Positions 3,299 through 24,454 of a DNA stretch of 64,000 bases are shown here, piece by piece. The translations under genes and the position numbers were made by a program. The stretch covers positions 18,147-82,146 of the IMG/VR virus record IMGVR_UViG_3300049002_000006. One strand, 5' to 3'. Positions within the stretch are counted from its first letter, which is position 1. Every line of letters begins with the position of its first letter. The notes beneath the pieces were generated by a model. The model did no database searches. It worked only from the letters and a program-made list of their open reading frames with translations, and had not been told where the DNA came from. Source of the DNA: a virus.

Positions 3299-3397
3299 AT
3301 GGTTTCGTTCGACAGGTCTTGGTGGAAGGGACCGGCCCCGTGGTGGGGCGGGCTACTGGTCGTCGCCGTAACCCTACTGTTCTGGATTTTCTCATGA
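3299..3397 (+). CDS. Small 32-aa membrane peptide MVSFDRSWWKGPAPWWGGLLVVAVTLLFWIFS (not in ORF track)
   Basis: TAAGGA RBS upstream; hydrophobic C-terminal helix; ATGA overlap with portal start. Confidence 0.55.
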   Translation: MVSFDRSWWKGPAPWWGGLLVVAVTLLFWIFS

Positions 3398-4980
3398 AGG
3401 GTATGCCAAAGGTCACTTTCGACCAGGCCGAGCGGATCCTCGATCAGAAAATCGAAGAACTCCTTCGTCACGGCAACGTCCGGAACGAATCCAGTCTGCA
3501 CGGTCGGCCGTCCCGGTCCGATCTTGCTGCCACGTCTGTGGACGAAGATCCGGAAAGGGACTTGTACACGGAGTGCGGGTATCCGAGGACGATCACCGCC
3601 TTCAAGTATAAAGCCCTGATCGAACGGGAAGGACACGCCCGCCGGGCGAACGAAATCTACCCGGACGAAACGTGGGCCGAGGAGCCCGAGATTTTCGAGT
3701 CGGACGATGAGACGGTCGAGACTCCACTGGAAAAGTCGTGGTTGGAGTACGCCGCGAAGACCAGGGCTTTGAGGTACATGTACCTCGGAGACATCGCGTC
3801 GGGCATCGGCCGGATCGGCGGACTTTTATTCGGCTTTAACGACCTATCTGGAAGCCGGAAGCCGGAAAAACCAGTTCTAGGTTTGAAGGACGACGGGACG
3901 CGAGCCCCCGGCCGCCCGCCCGAAGACCGTCAACACCTGTTCACGCGGGTGTTTGACGAGACGCTCATCCAGATCGTTGACGTTGACAACAGTTACGGGC
4001 CACGACACGGCCAGCCGACGATGTACCGGCTGACGCTCACGACACCTGACGGCATCATCAACTCCGCGACCGAGGGCACGCAACGACCGATCAGCAAGAA
4101 GGCGGCAACGGACGAGACGCTACTAGTTCATTGGACTAGGTTCTTGCCCCTGGCCGACGGGAAGACGACACACCCGATTTTCGGCACGCCCCGACTCGAA
4201 AGCAACTATAACCGGTTGCTCGATCTTCGGAAGCTGTATTCGGCCTCGCCCGAGATGTTCTACAACGGAGCGTTTCCTGGGTATTCTCTCGAAGCCCTGC
4301 CGGACGTGACCAGTGACGACGACATCGACGTGGAGGCGACTCAACTCCAGCTGAGTCGGTACCGGAAGAAACTGCAACGGTTTGTCATGCTCGTTGGCAT
4401 GACCATGAAGCCGCTGACACCACAAATTGCCGACCCGTCTAAGCACGTCGAAGTCTTGTTGGCGGCCGTCGCTATGGCGATGGGTATTCCGCTACGAATC
4501 TTCCTGGGCTCGGAGTCAGGGCATCTGGCGTCCACACAAGACGTAGCCACATGGAACAAGCGACTGGCAAAGCGGCAGCATACCTACGTCACCCCCGAGA
4601 TTATCATTCCGTACATCGAACGGATGCAACTCGTCGGGTGTCTGCCGCAGTCGAAGCAGGTCAAGGTGGCGTGGGCCGACTTAAACAGTTCGTCGGACGA
4701 GACGCAGGCGGACGTGGCGTTGAAGACCACGCAAGCCTTGTTGCAGTACGCCAAGTCCGGGGCCGAGGAATTCTTCCCGTTGCCGTTCTTCCTGGCTCAC
4801 GTCCTGAAGTATAACAGGAAGTTGGTGTCGGCTATTGTCAAGGAGGCTCAGAAGCGAGGTCGGTTGAAGCTGACGAGGAAGGTTTGGGAACAAGAAAAGG
4901 CCGCTCCGATCGGCGGGACAGGGAAGAAGCAGACCGGAGCTAAGACTGGTCGCAAGAGGAATGCGACCAGTAGTAAGTGA
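3394..4980 (+). CDS. Portal protein (DUF1073-type)
   Basis: DLYTECGYP, HWTRFL, FGTPRLE.YNRLLDL.K...S.EMFY, GIPLRIFLGSE.G.LAS.QD motifs; start refined to ATG 3394. Confidence 0.85.
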   Translation: MKGMPKVTFDQAERILDQKIEELLRHGNVRNESSLHGRPSRSDLAATSVDEDPERDLYTECGYPRTITAFKYKALIEREGHARRANEIYPDETWAEEPEIFESDDETVETPLEKSWLEYAAKTRALRYMYLGDIASGIGRIGGLLFGFNDLSGSRKPEKPVLGLKDDGTRAPGRPPEDRQHLFTRVFDETLIQIVDVDNSYGPRHGQPTMYRLTLTTPDGIINSATEGTQRPISKKAATDETLLVHWTRFLPLADGKTTHPIFGTPRLESNYNRLLDLRKLYSASPEMFYNGAFPGYSLEALPDVTSDDDIDVEATQLQLSRYRKKLQRFVMLVGMTMKPLTPQIADPSKHVEVLLAAVAMAMGIPLRIFLGSESGHLASTQDVATWNKRLAKRQHTYVTPEIIIPYIERMQLVGCLPQSKQVKVAWADLNSSSDETQADVALKTTQALLQYAKSGAEEFFPLPFFLAHVLKYNRKLVSAIVKEAQKRGRLKLTRKVWEQEKAAPIGGTGKKQTGAKTGRKRNATSSK

Positions 4981-5005
4981 TCGCCTTCGCCTATCGGGAG
5001 TTAGG

Positions 5006-5656
5006 ATGTGGTGGTTTGAAACAACAGACTGGCCCGCCCGCTGGCAGTGCGGTATTTGGCCGTGGTGGCTAGGATGGGGGACGATTTGTAGTAACCTGAT
5101 GATCACGGGAGCTTACTACCTGATTCCTGGTTTGATGCTTTATTTAATCAGGAAGAAGCCGGAGCTAGTCCATAGTCACAAGAAACTGGCAATTTGGTTT
5201 GCTATGTTCGTCATCATGTGTGGAACGACTCACGCGATGGACGCTCTGTCGTACTGGTGGCCGGCTTATCGATTTAATCTTTTGGTCCGTTTCGGAACGG
5301 CAGTCGTCTCCGTGTACACTCTGGCTTTGTTGTGGGCCAGTCGCTTATCACTCTTGAATTACTGCGGGCCGGAGGCCGTGCAGAAGTTACTAGACGAGCG
5401 CAACGAAGCTGTCCGGAAGTTACAGGCGACCAATAGGCTCCTCGAAGCGCAGGCGGCCAGAGACCACAGGCAATTACAGGAATTCGAGAAGGACTTGTCT
5501 GACGTCCGAGTTCAAGCCGTCAAATTAGAGCAAATGGACGATGACGGGTTAAGAGCCATCGGAGACCAAATCCGGAAGAAGATCCATGAGATTCGAGGGC
5601 ACACTCCGATCTCCCTCGCCCACGTGATAGCCAAAGCCGGAGAAGAAATACCGTGA
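5006..5656 (+). CDS. Stand-alone ethylene-receptor-like (ETR1-type) 3-TM sensor domain plus coiled coil, no kinase domain
   Basis: DWPARWQCG..W, SNLMITGAYYLIP, FAMFVIMCGTTH, RFGTAVVS match the ETR1 SD..IA.AYFSIP / FGAFIVLCGATH / K..TAVVS pattern; GGGAG RBS before ATG 5006. Confidence 0.75.
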   Translation: MWWFETTDWPARWQCGIWPWWLGWGTICSNLMITGAYYLIPGLMLYLIRKKPELVHSHKKLAIWFAMFVIMCGTTHAMDALSYWWPAYRFNLLVRFGTAVVSVYTLALLWASRLSLLNYCGPEAVQKLLDERNEAVRKLQATNRLLEAQAARDHRQLQEFEKDLSDVRVQAVKLEQMDDDGLRAIGDQIRKKIHEIRGHTPISLAHVIAKAGEEIP

Positions 5657-6129
5657 TTACGCCTATCGTGTTCGCCGACACTGACTGGAGTACAGTCGTG
5701 ACAGCAGCGGTGGCAGCTTTCTTAACTGTGGCAACTACCATAGGAGGCGGAATAGGGTGGTTGCTGAATTGGCGGTCTAAGCAGGAAGACAAAGAAAGGA
5801 AATATTCGACCGAAATGATGACCAGGTTCGAAGCCCTGGTCGGTAAGGTCGAAAGCATATCGACCGAATTTCGGACGGCAAACCGGGACATGGCCAAGGA
5901 CTTCCAAGGCACGGCGACCTCTTTGGCGAAGGAGGCCAGAACGGAAAGCCGGGAAGTGATGAAGACTCTGCTGAACATCCAGAGTGAGGCGGTCGAAGCC
6001 GTCGGCGGATTGGCCACCGAGGTCAGAGCCCTCGGGATGGCCCTCAACGAGTTGAGACTGGAGTTAGACAGGAAGCAAGACAAGCACCCGTCGCTAGTGC
6101 TTCCTGCCGGGGTGACAGGAGGGAGTTGA
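5653..6129 (+). CDS. Single-TM coiled-coil protein (holin/antiholin-like)
   Basis: N-terminal TM VVTAAVAAFLTVATTIGGGIGWLL followed by heptad coiled coil. Confidence 0.5.
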   Translation: MITPIVFADTDWSTVVTAAVAAFLTVATTIGGGIGWLLNWRSKQEDKERKYSTEMMTRFEALVGKVESISTEFRTANRDMAKDFQGTATSLAKEARTESREVMKTLLNIQSEAVEAVGGLATEVRALGMALNELRLELDRKQDKHPSLVLPAGVTGGS

Positions 6130-6341
6130 TGATGCCAGAAGAACTCCATAGCGGACAGTCACTATTCTGGTATCGAGTTTTCGTGATCGTCGTCAGCCTC
6201 GCCATCGTCCAATACGTCGTCGGCCGTATTTCGACCAAAGATTCGACACGCGAAGACGTGGCCTCGTCTATGGTACGGGAAAACGAGGCTAGAACGTGGG
6301 CATGGTGGGTGGCGGTCCGATCTGACAATCAACAACCGTGA
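6126..6341 (+). CDS. Small membrane protein
   Basis: TM segment VFVIVVSLAIVQYVV; coupled to the previous gene. Confidence 0.4.
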   Translation: MMMPEELHSGQSLFWYRVFVIVVSLAIVQYVVGRISTKDSTREDVASSMVRENEARTWAWWVAVRSDNQQP

Positions 6342-6705
6342 CGAAGAATCGATAGTCGGACGTACCTCTGATTTTCCCGTCCCAAGTCCGGCCCACACAC
6401 TTGCCATAGATCCAGATGATCCCAGTCAGGTCCTTCGGCTTCTCGAGGAATCGAAATACCAAGACGGCCGGTTCTGACAGTGGGCCGACGTGGACCAGAA
6501 TGTCGTCGCCCGAGATGGTGTAAGTTGTTACTGCAACGACCACTCGCCGGTCGTTGTAAGCGATGGTTGCATTAGTTGGGTCAGATTTGTACGCTTGAAC
6601 TAGATAATCGAATCGGACGACTGCCGGCGAATCGTCCTTAACTCCGGCACACGAGGACAACATGACGATTAAGAAGCCGGCGACGACACGGAAAAAAGAG
6701 GTCAC
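6289..6705 (-). CDS. Lipoprotein with OB-fold (tRNA_anti-like), moron-like
   Basis: AGGAGG RBS and GTG at 6705; lipobox LSSC; LVQAYKSD...A...YNDRRVVV and IYGKCVG motifs. Confidence 0.6.
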   Translation of the reverse strand: MTSFFRVVAGFLIVMLSSCAGVKDDSPAVVRFDYLVQAYKSDPTNATIAYNDRRVVVAVTTYTISGDDILVHVGPLSEPAVLVFRFLEKPKDLTGIIWIYGKCVGRTWDGKIRGTSDYRFFVTVVDCQIGPPPTMPTF

Positions 6706-6892
6706 TGGGAAGCCTCCTAAGGTAAGAATCAAGACCGATGCTCCTGTCTGTTCCGGTCCTCCTCAGGGGGCCGGCGGAGTTTGGGTCCATGACGGCATTA
6801 GCTGGACCCAAAAACAAGTCCCAACAGGAAGCGGTACTTGGCGTCTGATCTGGACGTCAGCCCACGGTTGGGATTGGGAGCCCGTCAACTAA
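6662..6892 (+). CDS. Hypothetical Trp-rich small protein, overlapping the lipoprotein gene head-to-head
   Basis: GAGGA RBS; PTGSGTWRL-type motif; reality uncertain. Confidence 0.3.
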   Translation: MTIKKPATTRKKEVTGKPPKVRIKTDAPVCSGPPQGAGGVWVHDGISWTQKQVPTGSGTWRLIWTSAHGWDWEPVN

Positions 6893-6959
6893 TATAATCG
6901 AGATTCGCCTCAGGAACCTGTCAAAAATCTTTCGCCCTTTTAAAACGCAGGAGATTTGA

Positions 6960-7673
6960 ATGCGACGACTCGCAATCGTTGGCATGTTCGTCCTGGTGAC
7001 GGCGTGCCAAGCTGCCGACTTGAAACTGGTCGGTGAGCGGCAAGTGTCGGCGGACAAATTCGCCGACTTCATGGTCGAAGGTCACACCGAAAACGTAGAC
7101 TACTTCGTCTATCCGATCCCGCCAATGTCAGTAGAGCGGGGCGGCGGGATATCGTTCAGCCGCGATCCGAAGGTTGCCGTCTACGTCATCAAAGCGACCG
7201 TGGTAGATTTCAACGCCAAAAAGGTTTTGAAGAGTGATCTAGTTCCGGTGACATTCGGGATTCCGATCCCACCAGGTCCTCCGGACCCACCTGAACCGCC
7301 CCCACTGCCGGAAGATCCCTTCATCAAAGGGTTGAGAGAGGAAGTTGCGAAAATCTCTCCCGCGGAAGACAAAGCCCGGGTCACGGCTTTGTCGGAAATG
7401 TACCGGGCCGGGGCCAAAGCCGTCGAGGACAAGATCGTCAAATCATGGACCGGGCTCCGGGCAAAGTTGGGGGACGAAGCGGCCAGTCGTCAAATTTCAG
7501 GTCGTCTAGCAAACGTCCAGAAGTACATCATCGAAACCAAGCTGAGTAAGGCGATGCCGAAAACCATCGATCCTCTGGACGACGTGTTTACGGCAGATAA
7601 AGGGAGGGCCGCTCAGCAGGTGTTGACCGAGGCGGCGGATGCTTTGGACAAGGTGGCCAGGAACGGAAAGTAA
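6960..7673 (+). CDS. Secreted/lipoprotein with Pro-rich linker and helical C-terminal domain
   Basis: Signal peptide MRRLAIVGMFVLVTAC; PIPPGPPDPPEPPPLP linker; GGAG RBS. Confidence 0.65.
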   Translation: MRRLAIVGMFVLVTACQAADLKLVGERQVSADKFADFMVEGHTENVDYFVYPIPPMSVERGGGISFSRDPKVAVYVIKATVVDFNAKKVLKSDLVPVTFGIPIPPGPPDPPEPPPLPEDPFIKGLREEVAKISPAEDKARVTALSEMYRAGAKAVEDKIVKSWTGLRAKLGDEAASRQISGRLANVQKYIIETKLSKAMPKTIDPLDDVFTADKGRAAQQVLTEAADALDKVARNGK

Positions 7674-7688
7674 CCAGGAGAACTCGCG

Positions 7689-8708
7689 ATGGACGAACAT
7701 GAAATCTTCCGGCAGGTCGGTGGTCGCCCAATGCTTCCTGTAGGAGCCAAGTTCGCCGACTTCGCTCCCGCAGACGTTCCGTGGAACTTCGGGCTTCTGC
7801 CACAGACGCCTCCGGTCCTGGACATGATCCGGGCCACGCCGTCCTTGGCCCAACGGTTTCCTAGACTTGTCGGGTCATGGGACGGCAAGACCGAAATCAA
7901 CCTGCTTGATTCGGTTCGGAAGATTGGTGTGGACCCGATCAGTCTCGTACAGTACCAGCCCCGCGGGACTTGTGGCGGCCGGGCGGGGAGTCTCGGCCTC
8001 GACCTGATCCAGGCTTCCGTGATCGCGTCGGGCAGGTCTGATAAGAAGACTAAGTTCCGGCGGGCCTCGCACGCGGCCGTCTACTACTTCGCCCGGCAGA
8101 AGTACGGCATGGACCGGGGCGGGAATAACGAAAACAATGACGGCGTGGCGGGCGGGGCCGTGCCCGAGATCCTAGCCGACCCCTTATTCGGTGTCGTATT
8201 CCGGGACGAGATCGGGGACACGAACTACTACGGTGAAGGGTCGGACGATCTGGCGTGTACGATTGGTGGCGGTCAAATCAGTGCGGACATGAAGAAGAAG
8301 ATTCACGAATTAGGTAGCGACAACACCATCGTGAAGGTCCGGTGCAAGTCTGCGCAAGACGTGGCCGACGTCCTGTTCAATCGAGGAGTCATCGTTCAGT
8401 CCGACAGTCAGGGCTACACGATGCAGCGGGACAAGGACGGATTTTGCCGTCCTTCTGGAACGTGGGCTCATTACCAAGTTCGCGGGGGGATTATAATCCG
8501 GAACGGCCGAAAAGGGTTTGTATACTACCAGTCGTGGAACAGGGACACACCGTCGGGGGACGTGATTCCGGGTTATACCGGAAACTGCTTCGGCGTAGAT
8601 TGGGACGTCGAAGACAAGCTGTGCCGGACCGGCGAAGTGGATGGACTACTGGACCTGGCTCTGTGGGATTACGATAAAGGACCGATCGAACTCAACTGGT
8701 TATTCTAA
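7689..8708 (+). CDS. Papain-like (C1-related) cysteine peptidase
   Basis: QPRGTC (oxyanion Q plus catalytic C), WAH (His), YQSWN in place of NSWG. Confidence 0.6.
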   Translation: MDEHEIFRQVGGRPMLPVGAKFADFAPADVPWNFGLLPQTPPVLDMIRATPSLAQRFPRLVGSWDGKTEINLLDSVRKIGVDPISLVQYQPRGTCGGRAGSLGLDLIQASVIASGRSDKKTKFRRASHAAVYYFARQKYGMDRGGNNENNDGVAGGAVPEILADPLFGVVFRDEIGDTNYYGEGSDDLACTIGGGQISADMKKKIHELGSDNTIVKVRCKSAQDVADVLFNRGVIVQSDSQGYTMQRDKDGFCRPSGTWAHYQVRGGIIIRNGRKGFVYYQSWNRDTPSGDVIPGYTGNCFGVDWDVEDKLCRTGEVDGLLDLALWDYDKGPIELNWLF

Positions 8709-8727
8709 CTAACAAAGGAAGTGTGTC

Positions 8728-8991
8728 ATGCCAAAATTCAGAAGCAGGCCGGTCGATTTCGAGGCCGTCCAATGGAAAGGAGATATGTACGGCACGCCAG
8801 GAGTCATTCAAGAACCCAATCCGGACTATCGGCCAGGAGGGACACTACCTGATTATAAGTATTACGTGATGACAGCCCACAAACAAAAGGTGTACTTAGA
8901 AATCGGAGATTGGGTCCGAGCCGAGCCGGATGGCAGAGGACACTACCCGATCAAGCCGGACATCTTCGTGACCATTTGTGACCCGATATAA
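8728..8991 (+). CDS. Small phage protein (PGDYG-like)
   Basis: KFRSRPV.FEAVQW...GDWV....G..YPIKPDIF pattern. Confidence 0.6.
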   Translation: MPKFRSRPVDFEAVQWKGDMYGTPGVIQEPNPDYRPGGTLPDYKYYVMTAHKQKVYLEIGDWVRAEPDGRGHYPIKPDIFVTICDPI

Positions 8992-9004
8992 AGAGGAGTG
9001 TGCT

Positions 9005-9586
9005 ATGCGCTCGTTGTTCGTCGTTCTGGTGTTCGTTTTGCCCCTCGCCGCAGACGACAGCCCGTGGGACTTTTCGAGGCGTGTGGACGACATAGAAAAG
9101 AAGCAGAAAGAGTTTGACCGTAAGTTAACGGATCTGAACTCGAAGGTCGATGCCACAATGGTGTTGATCGACCAGATCAAAGCGAAGTTCGCCGAACCGA
9201 TGAAAGTCGCTTCGCCTACCGAGACGGAAATCATTCCGGTCCCGAAGACCACTCTCCCTCCTGGTGTAGGAGGCGGGTGGGTGCCGATGTCGGATGGTAC
9301 TTACGAGCGGACGATTAAAGTGAAGTACAATCCGGTAATGCCGACTTCGGTCATGATCTATGGAACTCCTGTAGTCGAACCAGCCGTGCCGGTGTATGCT
9401 CAGTCTACTCCCGTTTATACTCAACCGTATGTCGGTACTTATCAGACCATTGGAGGGTACACCGTCAGTCCTTCTTGGTACGGGAGTGTGGGGGCCGACG
9501 GCGGCGGGACGTGTGTAGGCGGGGATTGCGGAAACACAACCATCAACTACGGGCGGCCCGGCTTGTTCGGCCGGTACCGGAGGTAA
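9005..9586 (+). CDS. Secreted protein of planctomycete style
   Basis: Signal peptide; coiled coil; Tyr/Pro-rich tail ending CVGGDC...RPGLFGRYRR. Confidence 0.55.
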   Translation: MRSLFVVLVFVLPLAADDSPWDFSRRVDDIEKKQKEFDRKLTDLNSKVDATMVLIDQIKAKFAEPMKVASPTETEIIPVPKTTLPPGVGGGWVPMSDGTYERTIKVKYNPVMPTSVMIYGTPVVEPAVPVYAQSTPVYTQPYVGTYQTIGGYTVSPSWYGSVGADGGGTCVGGDCGNTTINYGRPGLFGRYRR

Positions 9587-9587
9587 C

Positions 9588-9914
9588 ATGACGACCAAGC
9601 AACTGTGTGCCAAGCTGAACGACCGGATGGAATCTGTCCCGGCAGAAGTGTGGGGGGCGATCCTTGCGGCCGTCATGAAACTGATTCAAGGGTGTAAGGA
9701 CACTCCTCAAGAAGCCCTCGACTACGTCCGCGAAGCACGAGGTAACTTGCGTCACCGGGTAGTCGTGGCGGCGATGTTTCGGCGGGCGTGGGTGAATCAA
9801 GGACTCCCTCGCCGGAAAATGGATGACGGACTAGAAGCCCTCCTCGAAGAGGCGGACTTCGTTGATGTTAAGGACGTCAAGCGCATGTTTAAGGAGGCGG
9901 CATATGAGTCCTGA
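9588..9914 (+). CDS. Hypothetical protein
   Basis: GGAGG RBS; hydrophobic WGAILAAVMKLIQGC segment. Confidence 0.55.
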   Translation: MTTKQLCAKLNDRMESVPAEVWGAILAAVMKLIQGCKDTPQEALDYVREARGNLRHRVVVAAMFRRAWVNQGLPRRKMDDGLEALLEEADFVDVKDVKRMFKEAAYES

Positions 9915-10365
9915 CGAATTTCTGGAAAAGTCTCTGGCCGTTCACGACGCACTGAGCAGACCGGTTGAGGACGAGGTAGTGACTATCCTCAAAGTCATGT
10001 CGGACGTGGCAGAACTGTTCCAATCCGACGAAGCCGAGTACACACCCGGCCAGCAGAAGCAGTTGGAGGTCCTCGAGAACGACGTCCACATGATCGCGGT
10101 TAAACCGGTCAGTCTGATTCACGCCAAGCGGAAGACCGTGGATCGGAAGATCGATCCCGCCGCCGAGAAAGGTCTTTGGATGGTCTTCCGGCACGCCCTG
10201 CGGACGATGCTCGGCAAGATCAAAGTAGTCGAGCCCCCGGCCGAAGAAACGCCGGCCCCCGAGAGTGCCGAAGGAAGCGAGCCAGAAGCCGTTTTCCCGG
10301 CCGATCAGCCGCCCGACGTAGAAAGTGACGCCCCGCCCGACAGCAAGCGAAGGAGAAAGAAATAG
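9904..10365 (+). CDS. Hypothetical protein
   Basis: AGGAGG RBS before ATG 9904. Confidence 0.55.
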   Translation: MSPDEFLEKSLAVHDALSRPVEDEVVTILKVMSDVAELFQSDEAEYTPGQQKQLEVLENDVHMIAVKPVSLIHAKRKTVDRKIDPAAEKGLWMVFRHALRTMLGKIKVVEPPAEETPAPESAEGSEPEAVFPADQPPDVESDAPPDSKRRRKK

Positions 10366-10376
10366 GGCCTTTGCCG

Positions 10377-10405
10377 TTGACGCTCGCCCGGCATCCGGCT
10401 ATAAC
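10377..10405 (+). promoter_or_regulatory. Sigma70-like promoter for the head genes
   Basis: TTGACG-17 bp-TATAAC about 30 nt upstream of ATG 10435. Confidence 0.5.
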
Positions 10406-10434
10406 TTCGAGGAACATCAGACCAACCTACCTGT

Positions 10435-11862
10435 ATGAATGAACTAGTCCAATACTCAGTGCTGAATATGGACGGCGTGAGCCGGACCGAATACTTGCAC
10501 GGCCGCAAGTATTTGGTCCGGATGGCCGCCTGTGGTACCGAAGGAGTCATGGCCGGGGTCGATCCGGACGGGAACCCTATCGAGATTTTCTACCCCGAGA
10601 AAGTCTGGAAGGATACTCTGCATTCATGGTCGAACAAGCCGATCATGAACCAGCACCCGGGCGGCGACGACATGGCCGACGACCAAACGGCCCTCGAAAA
10701 GCAGAGTATGGGGTTTTTGCTCAAGCCGAGTTACGACAACAAGTTCCGGACGGAATGCTGGTTCGACGCAGACCGGACGCAGAAACTCGACCCGGCCATC
10801 TACAAAGCGGTCCTTAACAATCAGCCCATCGAATGCTCGACCGGGCAGAAAATGGCCATCCGGAAGGAGGACGGGGAACACAACGGAGTCCCGTACAAGT
10901 ACGTCGCCGTCCGGATCAACCCGAACCATCTCGCCATTCTCACCAAGCGTCGGGGGGCGTACTCGATATCGAAAGGAGGGGGCATTAACGTCCTGAACGA
11001 AGACGGCCATTCGTTGGTCGCAGTAACCAACGAAGCGTCCTATTCCGACATCATGCGAAATCTGGACGTGGCCCTGCGGCAGAAGTTCATGAAGCCCGGG
11101 TACGACTGGTTCGGGTGCATCTGCGACGTGTACAAGGACGGCTATCTGATCTACAGCAGTGCCGGGAAGTTGTGGCGGCTCGATTACGAAGCGGCCGACG
11201 ACGGGACCGTTACGCTGTCCGGCAAGCCGGAGGAAGTGCAACGAACGACCGTCTATGTGACGGTGAGTAACGAGGAGGCGGTCGTGGGCATCGCCTCGGG
11301 GAAGTATCTCACACAAGCGGAGGCGGAAGAAATGGCGAAGGTACTGACTAAGGAACAACTGATCGACACGATCATCGGGAACGGCGGGGCGTGGGAAGAG
11401 ACGGATCGGGAACACCTCGGCAAGAAGAACGAAGACCAACTCAAGAAGCTCCTGCCCATCGGGGCACCGAAGACGACCGAAGTCCCGGTCCTAAACATGG
11501 CCGCCGAAGTCAAGCCCGGGACTTACATCCTGACGGCCGACCAAGCTGCCGCCCTGAGCCGGATGGCCGCCCACGAGAAGCAGGCCAAGGAGGAGATCAT
11601 CACGGCGGTCATGAATATGGAAGGGAACCAGTTCAAGAAGGAGTGGCTGGAAGAGCAGAAGCTGGACGTGCTGCAAGGACTCCAGGCCCTCGCCGTCGCC
11701 CCGAAGAAGGAAGAGGAGGTCGCCGTTCTGAACCAGGCCGGCGGGGCCCTCCAACCGAAGTATTACGGGGCCGGCGGGTATATTCCGTCCGTCCAGCCGC
11801 AAGAAATCGTTCCGCTGCCGTTGTCGGCTTCCCGAAAGAAGAAGGAAACGGCCGCGGTGTAA
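10435..11862 (+). CDS. Prohead protease/scaffold (DUF2213-type)
   Basis: WSNKPIMNQHP, IECSTG, PNHLAIL....GAYSI..G.G motifs; position before decoration and capsid genes. Confidence 0.8.
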   Translation: MNELVQYSVLNMDGVSRTEYLHGRKYLVRMAACGTEGVMAGVDPDGNPIEIFYPEKVWKDTLHSWSNKPIMNQHPGGDDMADDQTALEKQSMGFLLKPSYDNKFRTECWFDADRTQKLDPAIYKAVLNNQPIECSTGQKMAIRKEDGEHNGVPYKYVAVRINPNHLAILTKRRGAYSISKGGGINVLNEDGHSLVAVTNEASYSDIMRNLDVALRQKFMKPGYDWFGCICDVYKDGYLIYSSAGKLWRLDYEAADDGTVTLSGKPEEVQRTTVYVTVSNEEAVVGIASGKYLTQAEAEEMAKVLTKEQLIDTIIGNGGAWEETDREHLGKKNEDQLKKLLPIGAPKTTEVPVLNMAAEVKPGTYILTADQAAALSRMAAHEKQAKEEIITAVMNMEGNQFKKEWLEEQKLDVLQGLQALAVAPKKEEEVAVLNQAGGALQPKYYGAGGYIPSVQPQEIVPLPLSASRKKKETAAV

Positions 11863-24151: not shown

Positions 24152-24454
24152 ATGGCCGACGACAACGAAACCCCAAAGTGGGGTGTGAATTGGTTGCTAA
24201 GCCCGACCGGCATGTCTCAGGTCGGGCAACTCATCATCTTGTTGATCGCGCTGGTGAAGGCTTTCCAGAACGGCGAGAAGGCCGACAAGGCGAAGGACGC
24301 GGCTGACGACGCCCGGGGCCACGCCGCCGTAACCGCAACCAGGATCGAAGACGTGAAGAAAGACGTGCAAGAAGTTCGTGTGGACGTGGAGCAGGTGAAT
24401 AAGAACCAGCAGAAAGTTCTTATGAACCAGTTGAAGCCGAAGAAGGGCGATTAA
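24152..24454 (+). CDS. Holin-like TM plus coiled-coil protein
   Basis: TM VGQLIILLIALVKAF; last gene of the + arm. Confidence 0.45.
   Translation: MADDNETPKWGVNWLLSPTGMSQVGQLIILLIALVKAFQNGEKADKAKDAADDARGHAAVTATRIEDVKKDVQEVRVDVEQVNKNQQKVLMNQLKPKKGD

Follow-up and report, generated by a model that had tools for sequence, protein, structure and literature searches.

Ethylene-binding membrane domains are known as input modules of plant and bacterial kinases. In the plant receptor ETR1, the full list of ethylene-binding residues has seven entries, namely Asp25, Tyr32, Ile35, Pro36, Ile62, Cys65 and His69. The excerpted accounts cited here describe copper as being held by Cys65 and His69, with Ile35, Pro36 and Ile62 among the residues essential for ethylene binding (PMC6586836), and report that ethylene binding is diminished by the mutations Y32A, I62A, C65Y and H69A (PMC8879215). 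They further describe seven residues as required for ethylene binding, with Asp25 positioning His69 and bonding Lys91 (PMC11819568), and the ETR1 mutant D25N, altered at a residue that bonds His69, as a working receptor whose ethylene affinity is about 100-fold lower (PMC11971883). Here we describe a stand-alone domain of this type that is encoded by gene 5006..5656 of a 64,000-nucleotide stretch of viral DNA (the window) from IMG/VR record IMGVR_UViG_3300049002_000006. Its 216-amino-acid product carries no kinase and appears to represent a distinct kinase-less lineage that is carried by phages. In the reading that we favor, at a probability of roughly 40%, this protein serves as a membrane sensor or regulator built on a copper site. 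It would work through protein contacts, and its target would be a late membrane event, probably the timing or execution of lysis.

The window corresponds to bases 18147-82146 of the record, which is 82,146 bp long, carries direct terminal repeats and has an estimated completeness of 100%. A sequencing-run look-up found the stretch in one run, which comes from a soil metagenome and is probably its source; no RNA run was listed for it. An earlier reading of the letters alone (hereafter the original prediction) had proposed that the gene encodes an ETR1-like ethylene/Cu(I)-binding domain with no kinase output, and the gene is indeed a genuine open reading frame (ORF) at these coordinates. Specifically, the frame is intact from an ATG at 5006, preceded at a distance of five nucleotides by GGGAG, to a TGA at 5654-5656. 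A rival in-frame ATG is present at 4961; the start at 5006 is favored because relatives begin at the equivalent residue.

The identity of the domain is clear. The Pfam family ETR1_N (PF25487) matches residues 22-112 with an E-value of 2.1e-23 and 82.8 bits against a cut-off of 27, covering positions 2-90 of the 97 in the profile, and a six-frame search of the genome recovers the same match at 84.8 bits. The sequence motifs and the bacterial-style leader that had been quoted in support of the domain are likewise present. The protein ends at 216 residues, and neither HisKA nor HATPase was found in it by Pfam at E <= 1, the other rows being coiled-coil noise with E >= 0.005. Moreover, no conserved phospho-acceptor histidine was seen in the tail among the aligned relatives.

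The AlphaFold2 model of the protein, built from a 54-row alignment, has a mean predicted local distance difference test (pLDDT) value of 91.7, and block values across the membrane-helix region range from 91 to 98. Three membrane helices are modelled at residues 20-50, 56-81 and 88-111. The rest of the protein, originally described as only a coiled coil, is modelled as a 55-residue helix (122-176), a 21-residue return helix (179-199) and a short last helix (204-214). Because the loop between the first two membrane helices is rich in Lys and Arg, the positive-inside rule would place the leader outside and the tail in the cytoplasm (N-out/C-in), as in ETR1. Foldseek returned no match among solved structures in the PDB at E <= 0.001, and a PDB sequence search gave only coiled-coil noise (E ~0.8-1). 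We would expect such null results if the ETR1 membrane domain has no solved structure. Against BFVD, Foldseek gave one row with a probability of 1.00, a 289-amino-acid viral protein with an E-value of 6.4e-3, and the remaining rows were noise.

A full HMMER search of 1.84 billion representative sequences yielded 5532 matches at E <= 0.001, and the family counts given below refer to the best 152 of these 5532. The top matches are proteins of 203-217 amino acids (E 4.6e-34 to 2.7e-29) that rank before the kinases, and the nearest relatives share 27-46% identity with the phage protein. Among the best 152, 29 proteins (the phage protein, P0001, plus 28 others) are no longer than 260 amino acids, and all were read individually. 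They comprise 16 full-length short proteins of 184-241 amino acids and 13 fragments or kinase-type forms. The short family thus includes, besides P0001, the 15 proteins P0004, P0005, P0006, P0008, P0020, P0022, P0028, P0038, P0060, P0079, P0095, P0109, P0114, P0123 and P0128. All 16 have the leader, the membrane domain, a Ser-Pro-x-Glu-Tyr-like turn past helix 3 and a helical tail, and a C-terminal motif resembling hydrophobic-Arg-x2-hydrophobic-x-His-x-Ile-Arg recurs among them.

In a tree built from 134 columns of the domain and 152 rows, a branch with a Shimodaira-Hasegawa-like approximate likelihood ratio test (SH-aLRT) support of 93 sets the 16 short proteins apart from all the others. 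Their mean pairwise identity is 40.5% over residues 1-112 and 20.1% over the tail, from which we infer that selection acts mainly on the membrane domain, while the tail is kept as a helical architecture. The product of 5006..5656 therefore belongs to an old kinase-less lineage and is no one-off truncated fragment of a host gene: the clade has 16 members, and its key residues are conserved. Neither outcome that the original prediction named as its refutation, a missing ETR1-domain match or a one-off host fragment, is borne out.

Each of ten short-family members that were looked up is the sole member of its 90% cluster, with longest contigs of 1.0-40.2 kb (Logan, ENA, JGI). A metagenome scan returned at least 80 relatives, among which 63 have complete frames of 372-1300 amino acids and 14 run off a contig end. 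The three short frames among these 80 loci are kinase-type (Asp-type) forms, and the 80 loci listed contain no gene for any of the 16 short-family proteins. A short-family DNA pattern, which fits about half of the known members, was matched by 54 stretches in 185,579 species genomes, and 0 of these encode a relative. A short form of another kind occurs on an 83.5-kb TARA ocean contig (L048, 9959..10447), where a 162-amino-acid kinase-type ETR1_N protein that retains the Asp ends past a short coiled coil.

These data also bear on the idea that the gene is a decaying, functionless remnant of a captured host kinase gene. The missing kinase part, and the existence of related phages without the gene, are what such a remnant would show. 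The frame, however, is intact and has a good ribosome-binding site, the structure model is confident, and 16 full-length relatives of matching length share conserved key residues and the recurrent C-terminal motif. We regard decay as extremely improbable.

The key residues were matched to ETR1 positions by counting from two invariant motifs, Cys-x3-His and Tyr-x2-Ile-Pro, together with the ETR1 numbering as we take it to be. On this mapping, ETR1 Asp25, Ile62 and Lys91 presumably correspond to Asn30, Val69 and Arg95 of the phage protein; we likewise take Tyr32, Ile35 and Pro36 to be Tyr37, Ile40 and Pro41, and Cys65 and His69 to be Cys72 and His76. The Cys-x3-His copper ligands are therefore present, as had been proposed, and the predicted substitutions of Asn for Asp25 and Arg for Lys91 are found where expected by spacing. 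Five of the seven ethylene-binding residues are identical by the same mapping, the two exceptions being Asn for Asp25 and Val for Ile62. The spacing of 19 from the His to the basic residue equals that between H79 and K98 of the bacterial receptor AzoEtr1, as given in the excerpted account (PMC11819568).

The family alignment separates the near-invariant part of the pocket from the part that has changed. The Cys65 equivalent is Cys in 16 of 16 short-family proteins and in 136 of 136 others; the corresponding figures are 16/16 and 136/136 for Pro at the Pro36 site, 16/16 and 135/136 for Tyr at the Tyr32 site, and 15/16 and 135/136 for His at the His69 site. Leader residue Cys15 is similarly conserved (15/16 short relatives, 135/136 others). 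The Asp25 equivalent, in contrast, is Asn in 12, Asp in three and Leu in one of the 16 short proteins, versus Asp in 120 of the 136 others, and the Ile62 equivalent is Val in 11, Ile in four and Met in one, versus Ile in 134 of 136. At the Lys91 site, 52 of the 136 other proteins have Arg, and thus Arg95 on its own is ordinary. The combination of Asn at the Asp25 site with Arg at the Lys91 site occurs in nine of the 12 Asn members of the short family. Among kinase-type relatives that lack the Asp25 equivalent (11 with Asn, three with Ser), the Lys91 site is occupied by Leu in 14 of 14, whereas relatives of that type with Asp have Lys or Arg there in 113 of 120. This co-variation fits the bond between Asp25 and Lys91, and marks the Asn/Leu proteins as a distinct kinase subtype.

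In the alignment, the short-family pocket is consistently altered, with Asn for Asp25, Val for Ile62 and a basic residue at the Lys91 site. Such a pocket is predicted still to hold copper. By analogy with ETR1 D25N, its binding of ethylene should be far weaker, or the site should be tuned to another small ligand or to a redox cue.

Kinase-less ETR1_N genes were also found in two other phages. Scanning IMG/VR for motifs of the family alignment brought up a single further contig, the 109.5-kb L002 (IMGVR_UViG_3300036861_001106). Its ETR1_N protein of 166 amino acids (E 2.7e-16) has Asn as the Asp25 equivalent, carries Ala where the copper-ligand Cys would be, and has no leader Cys. When P0001 was used in a tblastn search of 50,697 GenBank phages, eight records matched, and all are Maribacter phages Molly or Colly. 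The Molly protein gp065 (YP_010357114.1), annotated as a hypothetical protein, is 289 amino acids long, matches ETR1_N with an E-value of 1.5e-16 and retains Cys-x3-His, with Asn as its Asp25 equivalent. Its gene stops three nucleotides before gp066, the annotated endolysin, and the gene just upstream, gp064, encodes a one-helix coiled-coil protein. In place of the helical tail, the C-terminus of gp065 is an unrelated non-helical domain.

Equivalent tblastn searches of the same 50,697 phages gave no match with the L002 protein, and with the kinase-type domain P0071 they gave the same eight Molly/Colly records and no more. Scanning IMG/VR with one protein at a time (P0001, P0004, the portal protein and the L002 protein) produced no further example, and an alignment scan (A7) returned the Molly record only. 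Ethylene-receptor domains borne by phages are not the subject of any paper that a literature search turned up; the search did not cover the reviews by Carlew et al. 2019 (Small Methods) and by Papon and Binder 2019 (Trends Microbiol). When Molly gp065 and the L002 protein are added to the tree, both group with 15 of the 16 short proteins with a support of 99, and a tree uniting all 18 is not rejected (approximately unbiased (AU) test, p 0.58). This placement is tentative because the two proteins are long branches that meet each other. Single-pass coiled-coil membrane proteins are encoded nearby in all three phage contexts. In L002 (region 7184..9462), the ETR1_N gene stands among three genes for such proteins, and lies directly 3' of a gene for a 148-amino-acid PAS-only protein (PF00989, E 1.7e-14).

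One of the two roles originally proposed for the protein is that of a dominant-negative decoy. It would pair with a histidine kinase of the host that has an ETR1_N domain, using its leader Cys, membrane domain and helical linker as contacts, and the mixed dimers would silence or lock the pathway during infection. Truncated etr1 proteins are dominant in plants. The family clearly derives from kinase sensors, given that 63 of the 80 metagenome relatives listed have the long frames described above, and alignments to kinases extend into the helical linker as far as residue ~200 of the phage protein. Furthermore, both the leader Cys and the membrane domain that forms the dimer have been retained. 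One would expect a decoy, however, to follow a single host kinase closely, whereas this protein has only 27-46% identity to its nearest relatives and falls in an old, separate clade. The tail diverges fast (20% mean identity) and has been replaced altogether in Molly, which argues that the conserved function resides in the membrane domain. A position in the late structural operon is also late for rewiring host signaling, and the family-wide changes to Asn and Val are of no obvious use to a decoy. We consider this role rather unlikely.

The reading that we favor, of a copper-site membrane regulator, draws on the genes that follow. As originally noted, the gene is translationally coupled to the next one: the GTG start of 5653..6129 overlaps the TGA of 5006..5656 as GTGA, and the ATG of 6129..6341 in turn overlaps the TGA of 5653..6129 as TGATG. 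The first of the two downstream products has a single hydrophobic segment at about residue 12, with acidic residues before the helix and W-R-S-K-Q-E-D-K-E-R-K after it; from this charge pattern and the positive-inside rule, its coil is predicted to be cytoplasmic. The label holin-like that had been attached to it finds no family support: Pfam gives 0 families, NCBIfam nothing meaningful, and PHROGs only phrog_1863, annotated as 'unknown function' (E 5.8e-4). A word-index search found no homologue of it, and its Atlas leads, at 0.90-0.92, are to viral hypothetical proteins and DUF2746 clusters. The product of 6129..6341 has no family match in Pfam, PHROGs or NCBIfam. An i-spanin reading of 5653..6129 was considered and rejected, since the coil is predicted to be cytoplasmic and the next product has no Cys, hence no lipobox. 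A complex prediction for the 216-amino-acid protein with the 5653..6129 product returned scores of 0.00 and 0.00, which give no verdict on binding.

A second small one-helix coiled-coil protein is encoded on the plus strand at 24152..24454. This gene closes the tail module, a position in which lysis genes are common. Its product matches phrog_1863 with an E-value of 8.3e-5, and BLASTP finds no similarity between it and the 5653..6129 product.

The gene encodes an intact stand-alone ETR1_N protein with a leader Cys predicted to be periplasmic, three membrane helices bearing Cys-x3-His, a helical tail and no enzymatic output. The three overlapping genes, translated in series, yield this protein and two small single-pass membrane proteins, and under the favored reading the membrane domain and helical tail would contact these co-encoded membrane proteins. 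Such contacts would govern a membrane event late in infection, for which lysis, in its timing or execution, is the most plausible candidate. A more specific form of this proposal is that a tailed-phage lineage of copper(I)-loaded sensors with a retuned pocket couples an environmental gas, alkene, oxygen or copper/redox cue directly to lysis timing by way of co-encoded coiled-coil membrane proteins, with no phosphorelay. No response regulator or kinase genes lie nearby, the neighbors being the portal gene and genes for small membrane proteins, and no response-regulator families occur among the Pfam matches listed for the ORFs scanned. We hold this specific form to be doubtful.

Lysis functions were sought by scanning 88 ORFs of the genome with Pfam and subsets of them with PHROGs and NCBIfam, with some large replication-type ORFs outside the scans. 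The batches comprised 10 island and head proteins (PHROGs), 10 + 10 (Pfam and PHROGs), 33 + 30 (Pfam) and 10 (NCBIfam). From these scans, and by elimination only, the cluster of membrane proteins past the portal is the best lysis candidate in the genome. The original proposal that the sensor times lysis gains some support from the Molly homologue, which directly precedes an endolysin gene, and loses some from the present phage, where no endolysin was recognized beside the gene or among the ORFs scanned and the neighboring gene is no recognized holin.

Several observations weigh against the reading that we favor, and they concern both its lysis component and the metal site. No endolysin, lysozyme, amidase, holin or spanin family is present among the matches listed for the 88 ORFs scanned with Pfam (25 of 29 matched families in one batch), and the subsets run against PHROGs or NCBIfam likewise show no lysis family. 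No endolysin, holin or spanin family adjoining 5006..5656 was recognized by Pfam, PHROGs or NCBIfam. An endolysin gene is adjacent in only one of the three phage contexts, that of Molly, with none found within the 10 kb read in L002, and the partner proteins of the three phages have no sequence similarity to one another. To call the lineage a phage lineage is to rely on these three known contexts. Strict conservation of copper ligands is not needed by a plain pore-former, and the metal site is not universal either: Ala replaces the Cys in the L002 protein, and Ser replaces the His in P0028. Finally, the interval that holds the gene is best described as a hypervariable cargo hot spot of this phage group, not a lysis locus, and the gene is dispensable for this type of phage since related records lack it; the comparisons behind these two statements are given below.

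Another possibility is that the 216-amino-acid protein is itself the hole-former, a three-helix N-out/C-in holin exapted from a sensor, with the two downstream proteins serving as antiholin or accessory factors. Class I holins such as lambda S have a similar topology and size. The Molly gene occupies the usual holin position directly upstream of the endolysin, and the window offers three coupled membrane genes that are probably expressed late. No holin family matches the protein, however: it draws 0 families from PHROGs, nothing from Pfam besides ETR1_N and coiled-coil noise, and no relevant match from NCBIfam. Pore formation also does not account for the near-invariant Cys, His, Tyr and Pro of the pocket, 216-289 amino acids is large for a holin, and no endolysin was recognized nearby in this phage. 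Direct hole formation therefore strikes us as decidedly improbable.

The genomic setting of the copper-site regulator that we prefer is a structural module on the plus strand that occupies the first 24 kb of the window. Besides the portal and the prohead protease/scaffold, this module includes decoration genes, a major capsid gene and a gene for a 999-amino-acid tape measure protein. The portal stop lies 25 nucleotides before the ETR1_N start. No sigma-70-like promoter and no terminator-like site were found between them, and late co-transcription with the portal is therefore likely.

Related phages indicate what kind of interval this is. In 80 IMG/VR loci whose portals are 33-43% identical to the portal in the window, the nine proteins of the island between portal and protease/scaffold have no tblastn match at E <= 1e-4, whereas the protease/scaffold was found in 35 loci and the capsid gene in 22. 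The gap between portal and protease ranges from 177 to 7393 bp in the 35 loci having both flanks. Among the 103 gap proteins of at least 90 amino acids in these relatives, 30 are Mu-F-like head proteins, and other cargo with Pfam matches includes GDP-mannose dehydratase/epimerase, APS kinase, zeta toxin, topoisomerase IB, DnaJ and methyltransferases. Pfam recognizes no lysis families among the 103, which adds to the points raised above against a lysis role. No Mu-F protein is detectable in the phage studied here, and its nine island proteins have no phmmer match at E <= 1 among 169 gap proteins of relatives. Likewise, ETR1_N is above the cut-off in 0 of 18 related phage records, and gives no match at all in the 11 records that are at least 90% complete. 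The ETR1_N gene is accessory cargo in this phage, not a core gene.

This setting gives room to a late membrane function outside lysis, such as superinfection exclusion, copper(I) buffering within the inner membrane, or a remodelling of the envelope in concert with the neighboring lipoprotein and papain-like peptidase. In relatives, the corresponding interval is a hot spot for cargo in general, and the gene is dispensable there. Other genes of the island specify a lipobox protein, a secreted coiled-coil protein and the peptidase, and the conserved copper ligands agree with such functions as well. There is no positive evidence for any one of these candidates, however, and all leave the Molly endolysin adjacency unexplained. 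We judge a function of this kind unlikely.

Two further ORFs of the region merit description. The papain-like peptidase gene (7689..8708) lies 2 kb downstream of the ETR1_N gene. In its product, which lacks a signal peptide, the Gln, Cys, His and Asn-Trp motifs follow one another as expected. The product falls with viral Atlas clusters at structural template modelling (TM) values of 0.75-0.78, some of which carry PF00112; it has no match in Pfam, PHROGs or NCBIfam. An assignment as the endolysin was considered, and no tie to cell-wall cleavage was found; the product may be an endolysin, a packaged protein or something else. On the minus strand, a 147-amino-acid ORF with a lipobox-like L-S-S-C (6289..6732) is embedded in the late module of the plus strand. 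No family matches it, and it may or may not be a gene.

Table 1. Coordinates of the ETR1_N gene, its parts and the surrounding features in the window
Feature	Coordinates	Strand	Basis or remark
Portal	3394..4980	+	PF06381 E 3.9e-17, phrog_146 E 1.2e-40; 528-amino-acid form P0156
Accessory island, portal to prohead protease/scaffold	4981..10434	+	Nine proteins compared with relatives
Stand-alone ETR1_N protein P0001, 216 amino acids	5006..5656	+	PF25487 match, AlphaFold2 model, ribosome-binding site
N-terminal leader, residues 1-19, with Cys15 and W-P-x-R-W-x-C-G	5006..5062	+	Predicted periplasmic
Three transmembrane helices, residues 20-111, with Asn30, Tyr37, Ile40, Pro41, Val69, Cys72, His76 and Arg95	5063..5338	+	AlphaFold2 model
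Helical tail, predicted cytoplasmic, residues 122-214, without kinase domain	5369..5647	+	AlphaFold2 model, Pfam
Partner gene, 158 amino acids, N-terminal membrane helix then helical coiled-coil-like region	5653..6129	+	GTGA overlap
Third coupled gene, ~70 amino acids, one membrane helix	6129..6341	+	TGATG overlap, one hydrophobic segment
Lipobox protein	6960..7673	+	Accessory island
Papain-like C1 peptidase, 339 amino acids	7689..8708	+	Atlas
Signal-sequence coiled-coil protein	8978..9586	+	Accessory island
Prohead protease/scaffold	10435..11862	+	Structural module

If the favored reading holds, this ETR1_N module would be shown to work without a phosphorelay, and phages would gain a potential means of sensing a small ligand or the redox state in the host membrane. 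Should the link to lysis be true, it would represent a new way of setting lysis time, in effect a small-molecule-gated clock made from the module of a plant-hormone receptor. Established timers offer a useful comparison. The lambda S105/S107 holin-antiholin pair and T4 T/RI/RIII likewise consist of small membrane proteins that are made late from genes in series. The three helices of lambda S have an N-out/C-in topology, and T4 lysis timing is controlled by a sensing partner. These systems have no sequence or family relation to the phage ETR1_N protein and are not known to have a cofactor site, and they differ also in that no adjacent endolysin was recognized here.

In comparison with plant ETR1 and ERS1, the phage protein is alike in its three membrane helices, the Cys-x3-His motif, the Tyr, Ile and Pro of helix 1, the N-terminal Cys, which is predicted to be external, and the helical segment past helix 3. 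It differs by having no GAF, kinase or receiver domain, by its Asn/Val pocket, by its bacterial W-P-x-R-W-x-C-G leader and by its place in a late phage operon. The bacterial receptors AzoEtr1 (Azospirillum brasilense) and SynEtr1 (Synechocystis) belong to the same domain family, and AzoEtr1 shares the His-to-basic spacing of 19. As described in the excerpted account, they have all seven ethylene-binding residues and PAS or kinase outputs, and AzoEtr1 is encoded beside a response regulator gene (PMC11819568). The phage protein, in contrast, has five of the seven residues, no output domain and no regulator neighbor.

The substitution found at the Asp25 site is identical to that of ETR1 D25N at the His69-bonding residue, and this mutant still works as a receptor (PMC11971883). 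It is, however, an engineered plant receptor with full output domains, and the affinity drop of about 100-fold was measured on that mutant (PMC11971883). The natural Asn and Val variants of the short family would provide a ready series for studying how the pocket controls ethylene affinity. Molly/Colly gp065 differs from the protein in the window by its 289 amino acids, by Ser for the Pro of helix 1, by the absence of the W-W-P-A-Y loop and by the endolysin gene that comes next, and the two are 33% identical over 75 residues. Like the protein described here, gp065 is a kinase-less phage ETR1_N protein with Asn at the Asp25 site, Cys-x3-His and an adjoining gene for a one-helix coiled-coil protein, and Molly grown on Maribacter forsetii offers a cultured system in which the link to lysis can be put to a direct test.

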